DNA from: a phage
DNA length: 64,000 bases
Direction: 5' to 3' (one strand)
Sequence record: PX421306.1
A program made the position numbers and the translations under genes. Positions 24,340-32,668 of the stretch are shown in pieces; the stretch's first letter is position 1, and each line of letters opens with the position of its first letter. The notes beneath the pieces were generated by a model that did no database searches, was not told the DNA's origin, and saw only the letters and a program-made list of their open reading frames with translations.

Positions 24340-25304
24340 TGTATTCTTTAGAGGAATTTAATAATCAAGCAATAAACGCAGATTTCCAACGTAATAATAT
24401 GTTTAGCTGCGTTTTTGCGACAACTCCATCAACTAAAAGCTCTTCGTTGATAAGTTCAATTAGCAACTTTTCTTATAATAACTTGGGTCTAAATTCAGAT
24501 TGGTTAGGATTGACTCAAGGCGATATTAATCAGGGAATTACCACGCTAATTACTGCTGGCACACAAAAACTGATAAGAAAATCAGGGGTTAGTAAATATC
24601 TTATTGGTGCCATGAGTCAACGTACAGTTCAAAGTTTATTGGGCTCATTTACAGTTGGTACATATTTAATTGACTTCTTTAACATGGCATATAACTCATC
24701 TGGATTGATGATATATTCCGTAAAAATGCCAGAGAATAGATTATCCTATGAAACTGACTGGAACTATAATTCTCCTAATATTCGTATAACTGGGAGAGAA
24801 TTAGACCCTTTGGTTATTTCATTTAGGATGGATTCAGAAGCTTGTAACTATCGTGCAATGCAAGACTGGGTTAATGCTGTTCAAGACCCAGTAACTGGAC
24901 TGCGTGCTTTGCCGCAAGATGTCGAGGCAGATATTCAGGTTAATCTTCATGCTCGTAATGGATTACCTCATACTGCGGTGATGTTCACCGGATGCATTCC
25001 AGTGTCAGTGAGCGCTCCTGAGTTATCATATGATGGAGATAACCAAATAACTACATTTGATGTTACTTTTGCGTATAGAGTCATGCAGGCTGGAGCAGTT
25101 GATAGACAAGCTGCGCTTGAATGGCTTGAATCCGCTGCTATAAACGGTATTCAAAGCGTTCTCGGAAATAGCGGAGGCGTTACTGGACTATCTAATTCGC
25201 TTTCACGACTTAGTAGATTAGGAGGAACTGCTGGAAGCATTTCAAACATTAATACTATGACGGGAATTGTCAACTCGCAAAGTAAAATATTAGGAGCAAT
25301 ATAA
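24339..25304 (+). CDS. 54: Baseplate-tail tube initiator gp54 (321 aa)
   Basis: 321 aa; strong hairpin terminator follows. Confidence 0.92.
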   Translation: MYSLEEFNNQAINADFQRNNMFSCVFATTPSTKSSSLISSISNFSYNNLGLNSDWLGLTQGDINQGITTLITAGTQKLIRKSGVSKYLIGAMSQRTVQSLLGSFTVGTYLIDFFNMAYNSSGLMIYSVKMPENRLSYETDWNYNSPNIRITGRELDPLVISFRMDSEACNYRAMQDWVNAVQDPVTGLRALPQDVEADIQVNLHARNGLPHTAVMFTGCIPVSVSAPELSYDGDNQITTFDVTFAYRVMQAGAVDRQAALEWLESAAINGIQSVLGNSGGVTGLSNSLSRLSRLGGTAGSISNINTMTGIVNSQSKILGAI

Positions 25305-25307
25305 CAA

Positions 25308-25338
25308 TGGGGACCTTTCGGTCCCCATGTTTTTATTT
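25308..25338 (+). terminator. Intrinsic terminator after gene 54 (TGGGGACC-TTTC-GGTCCCCA + TGTTTTTATTT)
   Basis: 8-bp GC stem and U-run. Confidence 0.85.
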
Positions 25339-25623
25339 ACGGAATGAAATAAAAGCAGAAACTGAAGCAACTAAACTGTCTTCAATATAAACTTCAATTT
25401 TTACTGGAGCTTCTGATTCAAATTTACCTGTTACTACACCTTGGAAAATGCTTTCAGTCTGTTCTGGCTTTGAAAAATTTTCAGAAGGAAAAATTCCGAA
25501 CTTTTTATCTGTTCCAAAAATTTTGATAAATTCATCATAAACTGCTTCATTAAAAGCGTTATCAGCAGGAATAACGCCTTCAACTACAAGTTCTTGACCT
25601 AAAAAGCGTAAAGAAGATTTCAT
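25333..25623 (-). CDS. Hypothetical protein (96 aa) downstream of the alt genes
   Basis: ORF with SD GAGGAACA; driven by early-promoter cassette copy A. Confidence 0.5.
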   Translation of the reverse strand: MKSSLRFLGQELVVEGVIPADNAFNEAVYDEFIKIFGTDKKFGIFPSENFSKPEQTESIFQGVVTGKFESEAPVKIEVYIEDSLVASVSAFISFRK

Positions 25624-25631
25624 TTTGTGTT

Positions 25632-25686
25632 CCTCATGTTATGTCAGTAAGATTATTATAACACAATACGAGGGACTTGTAAACTA
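25632..25686 (-). promoter_or_regulatory. Early promoter/leader cassette copy A (stop codon + TTTACA-17-TATAAT + conserved leader + SD)
   Basis: Minus strand: TAG-TTTACAAGTCCCTCGTATTGTGTTATAATAATCTTACTGACATAACATGAGGAACACAAAATG. Confidence 0.65.
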
Positions 25687-27741
25687 CATCTTGAACTTTT
25701 TAGACATTCCATTGATGTTAACCAAAGAAGCCAAGATTTGAGAAACTTCGTTTTCCTCTTCTTTTGATTCTTCTACAAGGAATTGATTAAACCCAGCCAT
25801 TGGACGAACTTCACCAGTTTCCATCAGATGGTCGCCATCATATACCGATTCTTCTAATTGTTCAGAAGGAGGAACGATTGTGCCTTCGATTAGATACTTG
25901 TTATAAGCAGTTTCTTTCATCATGTACGTACTCACTTTATTAATCTTCAGCAAAATTCCACGTGGTAAAATAACTTCAGCTTCTGATGGAAATCCTGATA
26001 AATGTCCTGGAACGATAACTTTGATTCGCTCAGCTCCTTTAATTACCATACCCACGCTAGTTTCAGCATCTTCATTAGCATATGCAGAATGACTGCCCAT
26101 ATGCATTAAATCTTCAGCATCAACAGAACCTTCTCCTTCACCAGAAAATACTGCACCGGAATCATCTAGAGCCATATAGTTTTTACCATACTCACCGAAG
26201 ATATTTGGTTTAAGCGATGTGGATACGAAGTTCTTGAAATAAAACATTTTATTTTCAATATTATGACGTAAAGTTTTAAAGGTAACTTCTTGTCCACGAT
26301 AAAGTGTAGTTCCTGGAGGAAGAACTGATCCTTTGGCAAAGGCAGAATCCATTGTCTCGATGTGTTTAATAGCTCGTTCCATGTATTCTTCACGGGTAGA
26401 ATCTGGTTTACCCAAGAGGAACGAGTTCATTTCAACATATGAATCTGCACAATAATCTTCAATTACATCAGACTCAGCCTGAGTTAATCCTTTTGGGGGT
26501 ACTTCAGTACTTGCGTATTCATATGCCTGAGCAGCAGATTCATTAATCAATTTATAAATGCCATTCATGACAAATTGAATAATAGCTACTTTTTCGTCTG
26601 GCGTGGCTTTAGAACCTTTAACTAAATCATTGATAATTTTCTTAATAACATCAAAGCTATTAGAAATATTAATGTCAGCGAGATCGCTTAAAATTTTATC
26701 GGTTTTATAATCAAAGAATTCTTTATTCTTTAAATATTCTTGAGAACCTTGATATGTTATATCGCTCTGTAACTTGATAGATGGATCACGTAAACGTGCA
26801 TGAGCCAATGCAATATGATTTCGGAAGCTTTCTAGTTCATAATCGTTAGATTTAAAACGAGAAGCACTCCTCATACCACTGATAGCTCCTTTGCTGAAGT
26901 TTGAACCGACCTGAATAACGCCAGAGTTCATTGGTCCTTCTGCTTTATATACCGGAACTTTAGATTCAAACTCTTGATATTTCTTAGCAGCGAAGCTATC
27001 GCCCTGAAGTGAAGCATCGACAGTAGAGTATTGAGCTTGTGCTGCTAATCGACGACTAATTTTAGTTTTCTGAATAACAGCTTGATCCGTGCGCTTATCA
27101 TTTTCTAAGGCAATAGAAGCAGCGACAGCAACAGCTTTAGGAACAGCATTACCTGTTTTAACATCTACATAAACATCACCAACCTTTGATTCAACTTTTG
27201 TGAATAACTCAGTTGAAATAGGAGGTACACCTGGAATGTCTTCTAAATTAGCATTTTTACGGTAAACCATAATATATGCATATTTCTTATCATAGTCCCA
27301 GATTTCCTTTAAAAGAACATATCGACCTGCTCCTTTAGTACGTACTAAACGGTCAGCAATAACTTGCATTTGACGAGCAGCGCCATTTGTTTTACTTTTT
27401 AGTACGCGGAATAGGCATGCATCAATTTTATACTGTTTCATTGTTTGAAGAGCAGTATCAAAAACCGCATTAATGACACCAATTGGATTTCCACCTAAGT
27501 TTTTAAGTTTAACTAATGATAGCTTTTCATTGACACCTATCATTACGATATGCATCATTTTATCGCCTGGCTTAACGTTTTTATTCGTATCACCGCCAGA
27601 GGTGTATGTACAAAATCTAAATCCAGGAAGCACGCTTTCTTCACCCGCTTGAATAGCAAAAATTTGAGGTATTTTATGCTTAGGATTTAAGTTAACAACC
27701 GGCGCCGAAGCGCCGTCAAATAATTCTGTAATAAGTTCCAT
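25684..27741 (-). CDS. alt: Alt-family mono-ADP-ribosyltransferase (685 aa), R-S-E class motifs, probable capsid-packaged
   Basis: YRGQ...FVSTSL...EAEVILP (Arg / STS / ExE); N-terminal MELITE|LFD resembles a prohead-protease-cleaved targeting leader; which paralog is canonical alt is uncertain. Confidence 0.8.
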   Translation of the reverse strand: MELITELFDGASAPVVNLNPKHKIPQIFAIQAGEESVLPGFRFCTYTSGGDTNKNVKPGDKMMHIVMIGVNEKLSLVKLKNLGGNPIGVINAVFDTALQTMKQYKIDACLFRVLKSKTNGAARQMQVIADRLVRTKGAGRYVLLKEIWDYDKKYAYIMVYRKNANLEDIPGVPPISTELFTKVESKVGDVYVDVKTGNAVPKAVAVAASIALENDKRTDQAVIQKTKISRRLAAQAQYSTVDASLQGDSFAAKKYQEFESKVPVYKAEGPMNSGVIQVGSNFSKGAISGMRSASRFKSNDYELESFRNHIALAHARLRDPSIKLQSDITYQGSQEYLKNKEFFDYKTDKILSDLADINISNSFDVIKKIINDLVKGSKATPDEKVAIIQFVMNGIYKLINESAAQAYEYASTEVPPKGLTQAESDVIEDYCADSYVEMNSFLLGKPDSTREEYMERAIKHIETMDSAFAKGSVLPPGTTLYRGQEVTFKTLRHNIENKMFYFKNFVSTSLKPNIFGEYGKNYMALDDSGAVFSGEGEGSVDAEDLMHMGSHSAYANEDAETSVGMVIKGAERIKVIVPGHLSGFPSEAEVILPRGILLKINKVSTYMMKETAYNKYLIEGTIVPPSEQLEESVYDGDHLMETGEVRPMAGFNQFLVEESKEEENEVSQILASLVNINGMSKKFKM

Positions 27742-27744
27742 GAT

Positions 27745-29841
27745 TTATCCTTGAACGAACTTGTAAGGCATGTTTGTAATATCTATGCAAGACGCAATAA
27801 TTCCAAGAGATGATTCTACTTTCTGTTTAACGTTTGATGAAACAAATGATGCAAAGTCAACTCTGTCTTCTACTTCAATATCACCTGTCATTGCAACTAC
27901 TTCGCCGGTTTCCATTAGACGGTCACCGTCATAAATGACTGATTCGGTGAGTTCTTCCGTAGTCATAACTTCAGCTTGAATGAGTTTTGTGTTATTAGAT
28001 GTTGTTCCGTCATTATTAGAAGCATCAGTTATTTTATTAACTTTGACCATCAATCCGCGTGGTAGAATAACTTCAGCTTCTGTTGCTATTCCGAGACTTC
28101 CTGGATATACAACATTAACTTTATGAGCTCCATCAATTGCCCATCCTATTTGAACTTTAACGTATTCAGGATTTTCTTTATACGCTCTTATTTCGCTTGG
28201 ATTAATAGTTATTCCTTCTTCATTTTTATCAACTGTTAATTCATTGCGAACTTCTGGTTCTAAAAGACCAATACCAGCATGTGTAATTCCAAAACGTCCA
28301 AAAATGATAGGAGTTAAAGAAGTAGATACAAAATTTCTGAAATAGAACACTTTATTTTTAACTAGTGCTTCGTATATAGGAGCAGTCATACTTTGAGCAC
28401 GATAAACTGTAATGCCTTCTGGTATACGGTCACCGTTTTCAAAAGCTGAATCTAAGTTATTTATAGCAGATTCAATTTCTTTTTCACTCATTACATCATA
28501 TCGTTCTGGATTGTAACGACCCAAAAGAAGATTATTGATGTCAGTATATCCTGAACCACAATACTCTCTAATGCCGCGCTTTTGTGATGGAGTATATTTA
28601 GAACCATCACGGGCAATAGTAATATCAATCATTGGACCTGCACCAATTCCAGAAAAGCTATAAATCATTCTTTTAAGGAATTTAGTTTTTGCTGCGTTCC
28701 AGGAATTTTTAGTTATTTCTTCCCAGACTTCATCTGGCTGTCCTTTACGGGTTTTATTATGTTTATCAAGCCAATTATCTTTATATTCTTCAAAGAATTG
28801 ATTAACAGCTGCTGCGTATTTCTCTAAACATTTTATTGAAGTGGTTGGTTCATTTTTAATCGCATTAAGAATTACATCTTTAATTTTTTCAGAAACTTCA
28901 TTAACCTCACTTTTTGAAAAGAATTTATAGTCATAGTGAAGTTCATCTGCGGTTCCTTCGGCAATGATTTTTGCTGCCTTAGTTTTAGAAGCTAATGAAT
29001 TAATTCCAAGCTTCATTTCTTCTGCTTCGGGAATTAAAGGAGCTGTAGCAGGTTTATTGAAATTAGCTGCGGTAGATTCATATTTCTGGAATAATTCACT
29101 TTCAAATCTAGAAGATTCCAATGACTGACTTTGCGCAATTGCTCTACGGGAAATTTTAACTTTAACGATTACAGCTTGGTCAGAACGTTTATCGTTTTCT
29201 TGCGCAATAGATGCCGCAATTGCCTCATTTTTAGTTACTTGAGCTCCAGTATCTTTATTGATATAAACATCGCCGACTTTCGATTCAACTTTAGTAAAGA
29301 GCTCGGTACTAATTTCCGGAACTCCTGGAATGTCTTCTAGTGATACATTTTTGCGATGTATAAGAATATATGCATACTTTTTATCGTAATCCCAGAGTTC
29401 CTTAAGAAGGACGTATCTGCCACCTGAACGACTGCGGATAAGTCTATCAGCAATAACTTGAATTTGTCGAGCTTGACCAGCAGTTTTAGACTTAAGAATA
29501 CGAAGCATACAGGCATCAATTTTATACTGACGCATCGTTTGCATCGCAACAGTAAAAACTGAATTGATGTAATTAATTGGGCTTGGACCGAGACCTTTCA
29601 ATTTAGCAATTGAACCTTTAGCAGTTAATGTAAAAGGAACAATGTGCATCATTTTATCGCCCATCTTTAGATCACGGTTAGTATCACCTCCAGATGTATA
29701 GGTACATAAACGAAAGCCTGGTTGTTCAATTGCGTCATCAACATGAACTGAAAAAATTTGTGGTATTTTCTTCTTTGGATTTAAGTTTGTAATCGGAAGA
29801 GTAGTATCTTCGTCAAATAATTCTGTAATGAGTTCCATCAT
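27745..29841 (-). CDS. Alt-family mono-ADP-ribosyltransferase paralog (698 aa)
   Basis: Same N-terminal leader MELITELFD, YRAQ...FVSTSL...EAEVILP; tandem to the 685-aa paralog. Confidence 0.8.
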   Translation of the reverse strand: MMELITELFDEDTTLPITNLNPKKKIPQIFSVHVDDAIEQPGFRLCTYTSGGDTNRDLKMGDKMMHIVPFTLTAKGSIAKLKGLGPSPINYINSVFTVAMQTMRQYKIDACMLRILKSKTAGQARQIQVIADRLIRSRSGGRYVLLKELWDYDKKYAYILIHRKNVSLEDIPGVPEISTELFTKVESKVGDVYINKDTGAQVTKNEAIAASIAQENDKRSDQAVIVKVKISRRAIAQSQSLESSRFESELFQKYESTAANFNKPATAPLIPEAEEMKLGINSLASKTKAAKIIAEGTADELHYDYKFFSKSEVNEVSEKIKDVILNAIKNEPTTSIKCLEKYAAAVNQFFEEYKDNWLDKHNKTRKGQPDEVWEEITKNSWNAAKTKFLKRMIYSFSGIGAGPMIDITIARDGSKYTPSQKRGIREYCGSGYTDINNLLLGRYNPERYDVMSEKEIESAINNLDSAFENGDRIPEGITVYRAQSMTAPIYEALVKNKVFYFRNFVSTSLTPIIFGRFGITHAGIGLLEPEVRNELTVDKNEEGITINPSEIRAYKENPEYVKVQIGWAIDGAHKVNVVYPGSLGIATEAEVILPRGLMVKVNKITDASNNDGTTSNNTKLIQAEVMTTEELTESVIYDGDRLMETGEVVAMTGDIEVEDRVDFASFVSSNVKQKVESSLGIIASCIDITNMPYKFVQG

Positions 29842-29874
29842 ATCCTCTCTAGTGTTTATTCTATTTATAAAATT

Positions 29875-29892
29875 AAAGGCCCGAAGGCCTTT
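29875..29892 (-). terminator. Hairpin between the 62-aa ORF and the alt paralog
   Basis: AAAGGCC-CGAA-GGCCTTT. Confidence 0.5.
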
Positions 29893-30079
29893 AATAATCT
29901 AGTGGTAAGAGAGTACGATATATTTCAAACTTTGGACCTTTTTCGTAGGCATCAAATGTTTCTGTAAATTTATTATAAGCATATGCATCTACAAATTCGA
30001 GAACGATTTGTGATACAGAAGTAGAAACATCTCCACCTTCTTTTTGAGCAACGACAATTGTTTCTAAGTAAGCTTTCAT
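29891..30079 (-). CDS. Hypothetical protein (62 aa), translationally coupled to gene 30 (ATGA overlap)
   Basis: SD GAGGTAA; start overlaps ligase stop. Confidence 0.5.
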   Translation of the reverse strand: MKAYLETIVVAQKEGGDVSTSVSQIVLEFVDAYAYNKFTETFDAYEKGPKFEIYRTLLPLDY

Positions 30080-31539
30080 AGACCAGTTACCTCATGAAAA
30101 TCACCAAATACATCCTCGAATGTATTAGCTTTAGTTTTATCTTCACGTAAACGAATCGCAATTGGAAGAAATAATTTTACGTAATCAGTGCGGCCATCAG
30201 ATTTTAACCAACCGTTGCATTCGCACTCTAGAATTTTTCCAATATAATAATTTTGGTTTTCCATAATGCGAGTACGGTCAAGTTCATGCGATTTTACACC
30301 GGCTTTATCTTTTAAACCTGAACCAGCATTTACTTTAATTTTTCCACACTCTGATTCAAGAATAAATCCACCTGCTTTAGTAGGGTCTTTACGGTGAGGA
30401 TAAATTCCTACAATTTTTAAATCAACATCAATTACTTCTTTAAATTTATAGAGATTTTTTGAACGAGCATTTTCCCACAATCCATCGGTATTTTTGAGAA
30501 TAATACCTTCAAGACCTTGGTCAATATACTTTTTATAAATTACCTTAGCTTCATCTAGGTTATTTACTACCTGGTTTTCAATTAAAATTACTTTATCATA
30601 TCCTGATGTCATTTGTTCTAGTTTAGAAAAACGTACATCATATTTTAAACGAAACGCCGGAAGACCGTATATTTCTACCAACGGGACATAATCCCAGACC
30701 TGAAACTTCATGCATTGAGCTTCTTTTTCAGAAATGGTTCCTTTTAAGGATTTATTGGCGATTCCATTAGAAGTAGTACGAGATTCCGCTACTTCGGCGA
30801 ATTCTTTAGCTTTACTAATTTCAGGATAAGCATCAAAAAGAAAATCTAGGCCTTCTGGTTCCTTTTTAACTTGCTCATGGTATACCAATTCGCCATCAAT
30901 TAACACACCTTCTGGATGAATCTGGCGGGCTTCAGCAGTCATTTTGATTAACTCTTCCTTAAGAAGATCTAATCCTAGATATTCATTACCAGCTCGTGAT
31001 AAAAGACGAACATCATCTAATTCATCGCCTCGGACTTCAGCAAAACACCGAGCTCCATCTGCTTTTAACTGTGCAAAGGCTGGAAATTTGATATTCTTAC
31101 TAATGCCTTTTTCATCATAAGAACTTGCCAGCATTTGAGGTTGTTCAGGAATTAAACCTGGCCAAACTTTGTTTGCAATAGATACTGAAGCACCGCATTC
31201 AAGGTCTCGCATCATAACTCGACGCAAAACTTCAACATCATCCTTTTTACCATCGGTGATATATCCAGTCAATTCCTCAATTGCAGCATTTCCGGTCAAT
31301 TTCCGAGTAGCTAACGTGAATTCAATGAAGTCAAGCATATCGGTAATAGTCAGCATTCCAAAACTCTGGGTAGCAATACCAGGTTTAGGCCATTTCTTGA
31401 TATAATACTGTAACCCACGAGAATAAGTCAGACGATATACCCGTTTAAGCAATTCATTATCTTTATTCTTTTCAAGAATTGCTTGCTTCTGCTTAGTTGA
31501 TCCAATAGATGCTATTTCATTCAGAATTTTAAGAATCAT
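30076..31539 (-). CDS. 30: ATP-dependent DNA ligase gp30 (487 aa)
   Basis: Adenylation motif AQLKADGARC; 487 aa as T4 ligase. Confidence 0.96.
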   Translation of the reverse strand: MILKILNEIASIGSTKQKQAILEKNKDNELLKRVYRLTYSRGLQYYIKKWPKPGIATQSFGMLTITDMLDFIEFTLATRKLTGNAAIEELTGYITDGKKDDVEVLRRVMMRDLECGASVSIANKVWPGLIPEQPQMLASSYDEKGISKNIKFPAFAQLKADGARCFAEVRGDELDDVRLLSRAGNEYLGLDLLKEELIKMTAEARQIHPEGVLIDGELVYHEQVKKEPEGLDFLFDAYPEISKAKEFAEVAESRTTSNGIANKSLKGTISEKEAQCMKFQVWDYVPLVEIYGLPAFRLKYDVRFSKLEQMTSGYDKVILIENQVVNNLDEAKVIYKKYIDQGLEGIILKNTDGLWENARSKNLYKFKEVIDVDLKIVGIYPHRKDPTKAGGFILESECGKIKVNAGSGLKDKAGVKSHELDRTRIMENQNYYIGKILECECNGWLKSDGRTDYVKLFLPIAIRLREDKTKANTFEDVFGDFHEVTGL

Positions 31540-31805
31540 TGCTCATCCTTCAAAGTTTGATTTACAGCTCTATTATAAATCAATTCATCATTAAGCTCAG
31601 TCAAAGACCTATGATATGTAGTTCTAACTTTATTTCCTTGCATCCAATGCTTGATATAAATGAAACCTTGCTCTACACATTTTTTAAAAATTCGTTCGTC
31701 TTTTTGAGCTCGGAATTCTGGATTGCATCTAAAGAATTGATTTACGTGACCGTAATCACGTGTAGTATTACCTTCATTTTCATAAATAGTGTGAACGACA
31801 AACAT
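31536..31805 (-). CDS. 30.1: Hypothetical protein (30.1-like)
   Basis: 89-aa ORF in 30.1 position. Confidence 0.55.
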   Translation of the reverse strand: MFVVHTIYENEGNTTRDYGHVNQFFRCNPEFRAQKDERIFKKCVEQGFIYIKHWMQGNKVRTTYHRSLTELNDELIYNRAVNQTLKDEQ

Positions 31806-32668
31806 TAGAATGCTCCTTGGAAAATATTATCACCACTAGTAAATCTATTAAAATACCCTGCATCACCAGGCTTAGTATAACTCCACGTATGGAATGGATT
31901 CATATGATACGGGTGTGTATAATATGGATTATATTGATGTGTATAATATGGATTATACGGATTAAATCCAGGAGTTCTCCAGGTAGTGTTCCAACGAAAA
32001 GAATCGTTTTTAACCATCTTCTCAATTACATCTTTTATAGCTTTTTCACTATCAAAACTTTCTTTATTTTCCTTCGGTGAAAAAAGCTTATTTTCTACAT
32101 CATTCCATGTATAAACTCGCTGCGCAGTTTTTGGAATATTGTCACGCTCTCCTCGAGCCATCCAATAAACAGGAACATTTAATATTTCACTCGCGTGGTC
32201 ACAGTGGTGAGCGAGATCGTCAATATAACAAATTACGTTATATTTCTCTTTTGCCTTTTTAAACAACTCTTCTTTTGAAGAATCATGACCACACATCATT
32301 ACTTCTGAGAAGGCACCAGGAAAAAGAGCATTCAAATTAAATTGACGATTCAACAGAGCGTCAATAGAATCACCCAATGCTGTAACAGCTACAAAATTAT
32401 AATCTTCTTTTAATTTGTTAATTACACACAGGGCATCTTTATATGGAGACAAGTAACGAATAAAATCTGAACGATTGTATTTTTCAATTAACTTGACGCC
32501 AAGTTCTTCATCACAATTAAAGAGTTTACCTGGAGAAATAAATTTCTCATCTTGGATCATTTTTAAAATATGTTCTAACGGAAGATTATATTTCTGAGCA
32601 AAATAAGGAAGGCCTGATTGCCAGCTTAAACATACTCCATCAATATCAGTCAAAATAGTTGGCTTCAT
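31805..32668 (-). CDS. 30.2: HAD-like phosphatase/nucleotidase-fold protein (30.2-like) with Tyr/Pro/His-rich repetitive C-terminus
   Basis: N-terminal TDIDGV (HAD motif I-like); 287 aa. Confidence 0.65.
   Translation of the reverse strand: MKPTILTDIDGVCLSWQSGLPYFAQKYNLPLEHILKMIQDEKFISPGKLFNCDEELGVKLIEKYNRSDFIRYLSPYKDALCVINKLKEDYNFVAVTALGDSIDALLNRQFNLNALFPGAFSEVMMCGHDSSKEELFKKAKEKYNVICYIDDLAHHCDHASEILNVPVYWMARGERDNIPKTAQRVYTWNDVENKLFSPKENKESFDSEKAIKDVIEKMVKNDSFRWNTTWRTPGFNPYNPYYTHQYNPYYTHPYHMNPFHTWSYTKPGDAGYFNRFTSGDNIFQGAF

Follow-up and report, generated by a model that had tools for sequence, protein, structure and literature searches.

The tandem genes altA and altB, which lie on the minus strand of a 64,000-nucleotide (nt) stretch of phage DNA (sequence record PX421306.1; hereafter the window), most probably encode two functional members of the T4 Alt family, that is, arginine-specific mono-ADP-ribosyltransferases that are packaged in the head and injected; we put the probability of this reading at about 0.8. 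The T4 protein, gpAlt, has 682 residues, is present at ~40 copies per head and ADP-ribosylates the α-subunit of RNA polymerase and other host proteins. The window comes from a Tequatrovirus (T4-like) genome whose relatives at ~98% identity include IME339 and Shfl2. Two adjacent open reading frames (ORFs) of 685 and 698 residues, announced by an original prediction made from the letters of the sequence, are found there, and the genes are assigned as follows:

27745..29838, minus strand: altA, 697 residues plus stop; positional ortholog of T4 alt.
25684..27741, minus strand: altB, 685 residues plus stop; intact ortholog of the T4 pseudogene fragments alt.-1 and alt.-2.

Read from its first ATG, the altA ORF spans 27745-29841 and encodes 698 residues, whereas a second ATG at 29838 gives 697. 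The second is likely the start codon because it is the annotated start in T4, T6 and G50 and is better spaced from a GAGGA Shine-Dalgarno sequence (5 nt, as against 2 nt for the first ATG). The surroundings are those conserved for the T4 Alt family. On the minus strand the order is DNA ligase (gp30), alt.1, altA, altB, alt.-3, and on the plus strand gp29, gp48, gp54, so that altA and altB are located between DNA ligase/alt.1 and alt.-3/gene 54. Short plus-strand ORFs within the two genes find no support, and an Rfam scan of positions 25000-30300 returned no RNA family.

Both products match the Alt family along their lengths. PF03496 (ADPrib_exo_Tox; gathering cut-off 23.4) matches AltA with 130.6 bits (E 6e-38) and AltB with 72.8 bits (E 3e-20), and phrog_802, ‘Alt-like RNA polymerase ADP-ribosyltransferase,’ covers residues 1-696 of AltA (E 3e-272) and 1-685 of AltB (E 5e-255). 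The original prediction described both as intact paralogs with complete R-S-E motifs, and they are: VYR480AQ, FVS505-T-S507L and E587-A-E589VILP in AltA, and LYR482GQ, FVS507-T-S509L and E587-A-E589VILP in AltB. The R, STS and ExE residues, present in both paralogs on alignment, are invariant among 23 aligned sequences, and a set of 23 Alt-like proteins covering six phage genera likewise retains them. A profile alignment to PDB structures spans the Arg and ExE strands, in keeping with the ADP-ribosyltransferase fold of the R-S-E clade. Both genes are accordingly annotated here as predicted R-S-E mono-ADP-ribosyltransferases of the Alt family, expected to modify arginine in an NAD+-dependent manner. 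In T4 Alt, the E577A mutation, which removes the second Glu of ExE, abolishes activity; the arginine ADP-ribosylation assay exists for T4 Alt only (PMC11404850).

The toxin ADP-ribosyltransferases are reached only with the family profile and not with the single AltB sequence, which finds no solved structure at E <= 0.01. No NCBIfam model matches AltA or AltB. The C3, VIP2, iota-toxin and Vis transferases share the R-S-E motifs but lack the 225-residue N-domain, helical middle region and cleaved C-terminal tail of Alt. In Alt proteins, unlike this group, the STS and ExE motifs are also separated by a long insertion. Delivery also differs, with Alt ejected from the phage head and the C3/VIP2/iota-toxin/Vis group secreted.

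The domains of AltB were delimited on its AlphaFold2 model, and the N-terminal limits were transferred to AltA by alignment:

27067..27708, minus strand: altB N-terminal α/β domain, residues 12-225.
26497..27054, minus strand: altB all-helical middle region, residues 230-415; AlphaFold2 model, predicted local distance difference test (pLDDT) ~77-89.
25867..26484, minus strand: altB ADP-ribosyltransferase catalytic domain, residues 420-625.
25687..25848, minus strand: altB predicted C-terminal propeptide, residues 632-685; LEE/S (slash, predicted cut) aligned with T4 LTE-619/S.
29161..29805, minus strand: altA N-terminal α/β domain, residues ~12-226; PF26846, Tevenvirinae_ADPRT.
27958..29121, minus strand: altA variable effector module (helical middle plus catalytic domain), residues ~240-627.
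27748..27942, minus strand: altA predicted C-terminal propeptide, residues 633-697, by alignment to the T4 Alt LTE-619 site.

The N-domain model PF26846 is precomputed on P0001, a 99%-identical representative of AltB, on the hybrid genes described below and on P0084, a 697-residue representative of an AltA-type cluster; our Pfam scan of isolated N-domains and middle regions, made with a model set without PF26846, gave nothing above noise. At the DNA level the pair shows up as a tandem duplication (period 2094-2097 nt), far beyond chance. The longest exact run common to both genes is 19 nt. The proteins are 41% identical overall, the same value as between AltB and T4 Alt. As the original prediction proposed, the central regions have diverged strongly: pairwise alignment gives 67% identity in the N-terminal domain, 18% in the middle region, 33% in the catalytic domain and 44% in the C-terminal tail. 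Both genes are under strong purifying selection, with pairwise ratios of nonsynonymous to synonymous rates (dN/dS; window, G50 and T6) of 0.02-0.06 for altA and 0.03-0.05 for altB.

Cleavage by the prohead protease gp21 is predicted at both termini of both proteins. AltA and AltB start with MELITE/LFD, and the first nine residues of AltB are identical to those of T4 Alt. The leader had been proposed as a gp21 site, and for T4 Alt this holds, as GenBank X15811 notes ‘6 amino acids cleaved off’ and mass spectrometry locates processing at ITE-6 (PMC5694885). The proposal captured the N-terminal site but missed a C-terminal one, L-x-E/S followed by YDGD, that is conserved in both paralogs. T4 Alt undergoes a second cut at LTE-619, which removes 63 C-terminal residues and leaves a mature protein of 68.2 kDa (PMC5694885), in agreement with the 68.2 kDa that we recompute from its sequence. 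The corresponding motifs are in register at LTE-632/S in AltA and LEE-631/S in AltB, each followed by the invariant YDGD..ETGE, and the predicted mature masses are 70.1 kDa and 69.2 kDa, respectively. Both gp21 motifs are kept in Alt-like proteins of Dhakavirus, Mosigvirus, Krischvirus, and Acinetobacter and Aeromonas phages. The C-terminal tail is acidic and, in the AltB model, disordered (pLDDT < 50), as expected for a propeptide.

T4 Alt is a head-packaged protein that enters the host together with the DNA (PMC5512222, PMC9026906), and the same is known for the Alt of a Mosigvirus (RB69-like) phage (PMC6563131). In this respect Alt resembles T4 IPI-IPIII, which likewise have a short N-terminal propeptide cut by gp21 after (L/I)-x-E and are packaged and injected (PMC9026906). 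The capsid targeting sequence of IPI-IPIII comprises 10-19 residues, and the IPIII leader alone is enough for targeting. Unlike IPIII, Alt has a further propeptide at its C terminus, and its large, conserved N-domain may contribute to targeting.

Signals around the two genes are compatible with joint, late expression, and the roles given to them here are predicted from sequence:

29875..29892, minus strand: terminator-like hairpin AAAGGCC-TTCG-GGCCTTT plus T-rich run, directly after the alt.1 stop and upstream of altA; read from the sequence.
29862..29869, minus strand: T4-type late promoter TATAAATA, an exact match 24 nt upstream of the altA start codon.
27748..27752, minus strand: altB Shine-Dalgarno-like AAGGA within the last altA codons; sequence GTTCAAGGATAAATCATGG.

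The homologous position of the hairpin is annotated as a terminator in G50; a simple terminator scanner did not pick up the hairpin in the window. The putative late promoter fits late expression of a head-packaged protein. Because only 3 nt separate the altA stop from the altB ATG and AAGGA lies inside the 3′ end of altA, the arrangement suggests co-transcription and coupled translation of the pair. A second exact TATAAATA occurs inside altA (28458-28465, minus strand), ~720 nt upstream of altB, and could be a second late promoter for altB or a chance match; exact matches number 18 in the window, as against 9 expected, and the internal copy is compatible with chance.

These features lead to a proposed course of events modeled on T4 Alt. 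Both genes would be transcribed late from the TATAAATA upstream of altA, with altB translation coupled to that of altA, and both proteins would enter the prohead core, the common, genus-specific N-terminal domain presumably acting as the packaging or core-interaction module. There gp21 would cut off the six N-terminal residues (after ITE-6) and the 54-65-residue acidic C-terminal tail (after L-x-E), leaving mature proteins of ~69-70 kDa in the head. Upon ejection into the host with the DNA, AltA and AltB would use NAD+ to ADP-ribosylate arginines of host proteins. Their target sets are probably different or only partly overlapping, because the middle regions are unrelated and the catalytic domains are only 33% identical; the different targets suggested by the original prediction are therefore plausible, and the argument is one of divergence in the middle and catalytic regions. 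Since the effector modules diverge, it is uncertain whether AltA or AltB modifies Arg 265 of the RNA polymerase α-subunit.

The T4 Alt protein shares with the window genes its domain order, the R-STS-ExE motifs, the ITE-6 and L-x-E sites and the late promoter, but the middle region of AltB is unrelated to that of T4 Alt. AltA itself is a mosaic. It is 70% identical to T4 Alt overall, with 100% in the N-domain, 33% in the middle region, 64% in the catalytic domain and 94% in the C-terminal tail, whereas in the catalytic domain the upstream Alt of Dhakavirus IME341/WG01 is the closer match, at 96%. The DNA follows the same pattern, with sharp boundaries: nt 1-730 of altA are 94-100% identical to T4 alt, nt 1250-1880 are 83-97% identical to the Dhakavirus upstream alt as against 56-81% to T4, and nt 1970-2094 are again 97-98% identical to T4 (Dhakavirus genes L006 1913-3997 and L007 5287-7368, compared with window positions 27958-29121). 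T4-like flanks around a Dhakavirus-like catalytic module point to cassette exchange between genera.

More generally, the N-domain and the effector modules group differently. The N-domains group by phage genus, with A and B copies of one genome 64-67% identical and those of Tequatrovirus and Dhakavirus only ~42-46%. For the middle and catalytic modules, by contrast, neighbor-joining trees and identity tables place copies of one paralog type together even when they come from different genera. AltA and the Dhakavirus upstream copy are 64% identical in the middle region and 96% in the catalytic domain, and AltB and the downstream copy 44% and 55%, respectively. The A and B effector types can be traced between Tequatrovirus and Dhakavirus, but the Acinetobacter and Aeromonas pairs do not clearly fit either type.

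Recombination at the locus is also visible as single altA-N::altB hybrid genes situated between alt.1 and alt.-3:

L005, 1742-3802: hybrid alt gene of ECML-134 (JX128259, complete genome).
L003, 5001-7055: hybrid alt gene on a metagenomic Logan contig.
L004, 5001-7061: hybrid alt gene on a second metagenomic Logan contig.

In these genes the 5′ part of altA continues up to nt ~480, 550 or 650 and is followed by the remainder of altB, which implies that the tandem N-domains underwent unequal crossover at three different points. The existence of such natural hybrids suggests that the N-domains are interchangeable. An assembly artefact is an unlikely source of the hybrids, though somewhat less so for the two on Logan contigs, given the shortness of the longest common run, the three breakpoints and the complete genome of ECML-134.

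The alt locus thus has at least four states: A plus B, A plus a deleted B remnant (as in T4), the A-N::B hybrid, and three copies. At the same locus, Dhakavirus IME341 has two tandem alt genes and WG01 three, Aeromonas 44RR/avDM2 have tandem alt genes, an Aeromonas phage has two, and RB49 has one alt plus a fragment. The record of Acinetobacter phage Ac42 annotates an ‘alt gene duplication,’ and ZZ1 has a split copy. The three Alt-like genes of WG01 (L007 3383-9495) encode 631, 693 and 707 residues, and the first is without YDGD after its C-terminal I-T-E.

In T4, the place of altB is occupied by alt.-1/alt.-2, which its GenBank record takes for the initial part of alt, duplicated long ago. 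The comparison with the window leads to a different reading. The T4 stretch translates from MELITELFDGASAPVV, which is the N terminus of AltB and not that of AltA, and its DNA is ~95% identical to altB across the first 347 nt of the gene and also over 94 nt spanning the last altB codons and the spacer upstream of alt.-3. Between these segments T4 has lost 1699 bp, with a copy of the 9-bp direct repeat CTAAAAAGT exactly at either breakpoint, and a 1-bp deletion has caused a frameshift. The two copies lie in the window at:

27394..27402, minus strand: upstream CTAAAAAGT copy, left T4 deletion breakpoint; altB codons ~114-116.
25695..25703, minus strand: downstream CTAAAAAGT copy, right T4 deletion breakpoint; altB codons ~680-682.

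In addition, AltB outscores AltA against the PHROG families of alt.-1 and alt.-2. The alignment, the junction and these scores establish that T4 carries the decayed remnant of a full-length altB rather than a partial duplication; the gene occupies the same position in the window but is intact there.

T4 is also the exception within its genus. By tblastn, AltB is found at >=80% identity in 403 phage records, T2 and RB7 included; it is 95-99% conserved in ~400 records, and altB is 99% identical to proteins annotated ‘Alt-like.’ T6 has the same pair of 697 and 685 residues. Of 500 related records, only 91 match a probe centered on the T4 junction over its whole length; in the others the probe splits in two, as expected with an intact altB. 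Intact altB is therefore the majority state, in ~400 of roughly 500 Tequatrovirus records (about 80%), T2 and T6 included. A second intact paralog had been singled out as deserving attention beside T4; this did not hold up, as both genes are already named ‘Alt-like RNA polymerase ADP-ribosyltransferase’ in RefSeq, and alt duplications appear in the literature (Nolan et al. 2006, PMC1524935; Jin et al. 2014, PMC4177764). The two-gene arrangement is real, ordinary, and already known and annotated.

We considered three other accounts of AltB. One would make it a redundant back-up or dosage copy that acts on the same substrates as AltA, namely Arg 265 of the RNA polymerase α-subunit and the other reported T4 Alt substrates. 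The two proteins do share family, catalytic motifs and predicted processing, T4 does without altB, and T4 Alt is itself non-essential (PMC9026906). However, identity between the two falls to 18% in the middle region and 33% in the catalytic domain, each effector lineage (A or B) is conserved across genera, and long-term retention of diverged copies under strong purifying selection argues for distinct roles, so that we regard redundancy as unlikely. Less probable still is that AltB is neither packaged nor injected, its activity being confined to the late phase of infection in the cell that makes it. This would agree with the lack of a proteomic report of its packaging in the literature that we searched and has a precedent in T4 ModA and ModB, paralogous transferases that are unpackaged (PMC5512222), but it leaves unexplained why AltB has the complete Alt architecture with N-domain and both gp21 motifs in register, why its first nine residues are identical to those of T4 Alt, why natural hybrids join the AltA N-domain to the AltB body, and why the sole nearby late promoter is common with altA. 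Finally, the decay of the T4 homolog could suggest a pseudogene in decay or a structural core protein without catalytic activity. With an intact reading frame, all catalytic residues present, a dN/dS of 0.03-0.05 and 95-99% conservation in ~400 records, the sequence data contradict this idea, and its chances are very slight.

Several points count against two packaged, injected transferases with separate targets. Our search of the literature returned no proteomic or biochemical study of AltB. T4 and the 91 of 500 records with the T4-type junction are without an intact altB, so the gene is dispensable, at least in the laboratory. The proposed divergence of AltA and AltB targets is an argument from sequence divergence only, and the neighbor-joining trees behind the grouping of the modules are without bootstrap support. 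A packaging role for the N-domain is suggested by a phylogenetic pattern and weak fold matches, and the mechanism of localization to the T4 scaffolding core has been described as unresolved (PMC9958956).

Such a role for the N-domain, as an adaptor in head packaging or ejection, nevertheless fits its genus-specific clustering, the natural N-domain swaps and the Foldseek matches. By sequence, the domain occurs in 69 clusters among 1.84 billion representatives, nearly all of them Alt-like proteins of 600-712 residues in which it is N-terminal. Two distant representatives, P0184 (541 residues) and P0183 (485 residues), have the Alt N-domain and no Pfam ADP-ribosyltransferase match; P0183 looks like a degenerate transferase (Y-K for Y-R, TSCS for STS), and the C-terminal part of P0184 appears unrelated. 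Among predicted viral structures, Foldseek finds the N-domain fold in large uncharacterized proteins (E 1e-8 to 1e-4, template modeling (TM) score ~0.4-0.55), which follow the Alt proteins and come from Ackermannviridae, Vibrio phages and the jumbo phage Atu_ph07. The annotation of some of these proteins includes a zeta-toxin, ParB/Srx or deaminase domain. Since the fold is seen in proteins of unrelated phages with other domain annotations, the adaptor may deliver other cargo too; these matches are a lead, not a result.

A bolder, tentative version of our reading is that AltB is a second injected arginine transferase whose targets do not overlap with those of T4 Alt, and that the locus is a set of one to three cassettes in which an N-domain adaptor is combined with exchanged effectors. 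If so, AltB targets might include defence or stress proteins, and the loss of altB in T4 might contribute to the phenotypic differences between T4 and T2/T6. The gene pair as such matters little, being annotated in hundreds of genomes, and the alt duplication has been noted since the T4 genome annotation. The main addition is the corrected reading of T4, which lost altB by a clean 1699-bp deletion between 9-bp repeats and a frameshift. In T2, T6 and ~80% of the genus the second Alt-family gene is intact, and we found no characterization of its product in the literature. ADP-ribosylation and RNAylation by T4 enzymes are under active study with T4 alone, which makes AltB an easy candidate for a new host-takeover or counter-defence activity. 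Module swapping, in turn, gives a means of studying how Alt is directed to the prohead core.

Downstream of altB lie the following features:

25655..25683, minus strand: strong early-type promoter TTTACA-17 nt-TATAAT with TG, immediately after the altB stop; predicted to serve alt.-3.
25333..25623, minus strand: alt.-3, 96 residues, DUF5498; downstream neighbor.
25307..25328, strand not assigned: bidirectional terminator hairpin between alt.-3 and gene 54; scanner match, annotated in G50.

The putative alt.-3 promoter is still present in T4, because the T4 deletion ends just upstream of it. C-terminal extensions of T4 Alt.-3 have been linked to escape from, or block of, the CmdTAC defence system (PMC11618068).

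Database labels in this region cannot be relied on. The T6 record (L012, AP018814) lists altB as ‘hypothetical protein’ and gives the names portal, terminase or head vertex protein to small genes close to gene 30, and several records name alt.1 ‘siderophore-interacting protein.’ Farther along the window, the gene 30.2 homolog (31805-32668, minus strand) encodes a 287-residue product that ends in a Tyr/Pro/Asn-rich repeat (NPYNPYYTHQYNPYYTHPYHMNPF); the gene is 864 nt long, as against 837 nt in T4.

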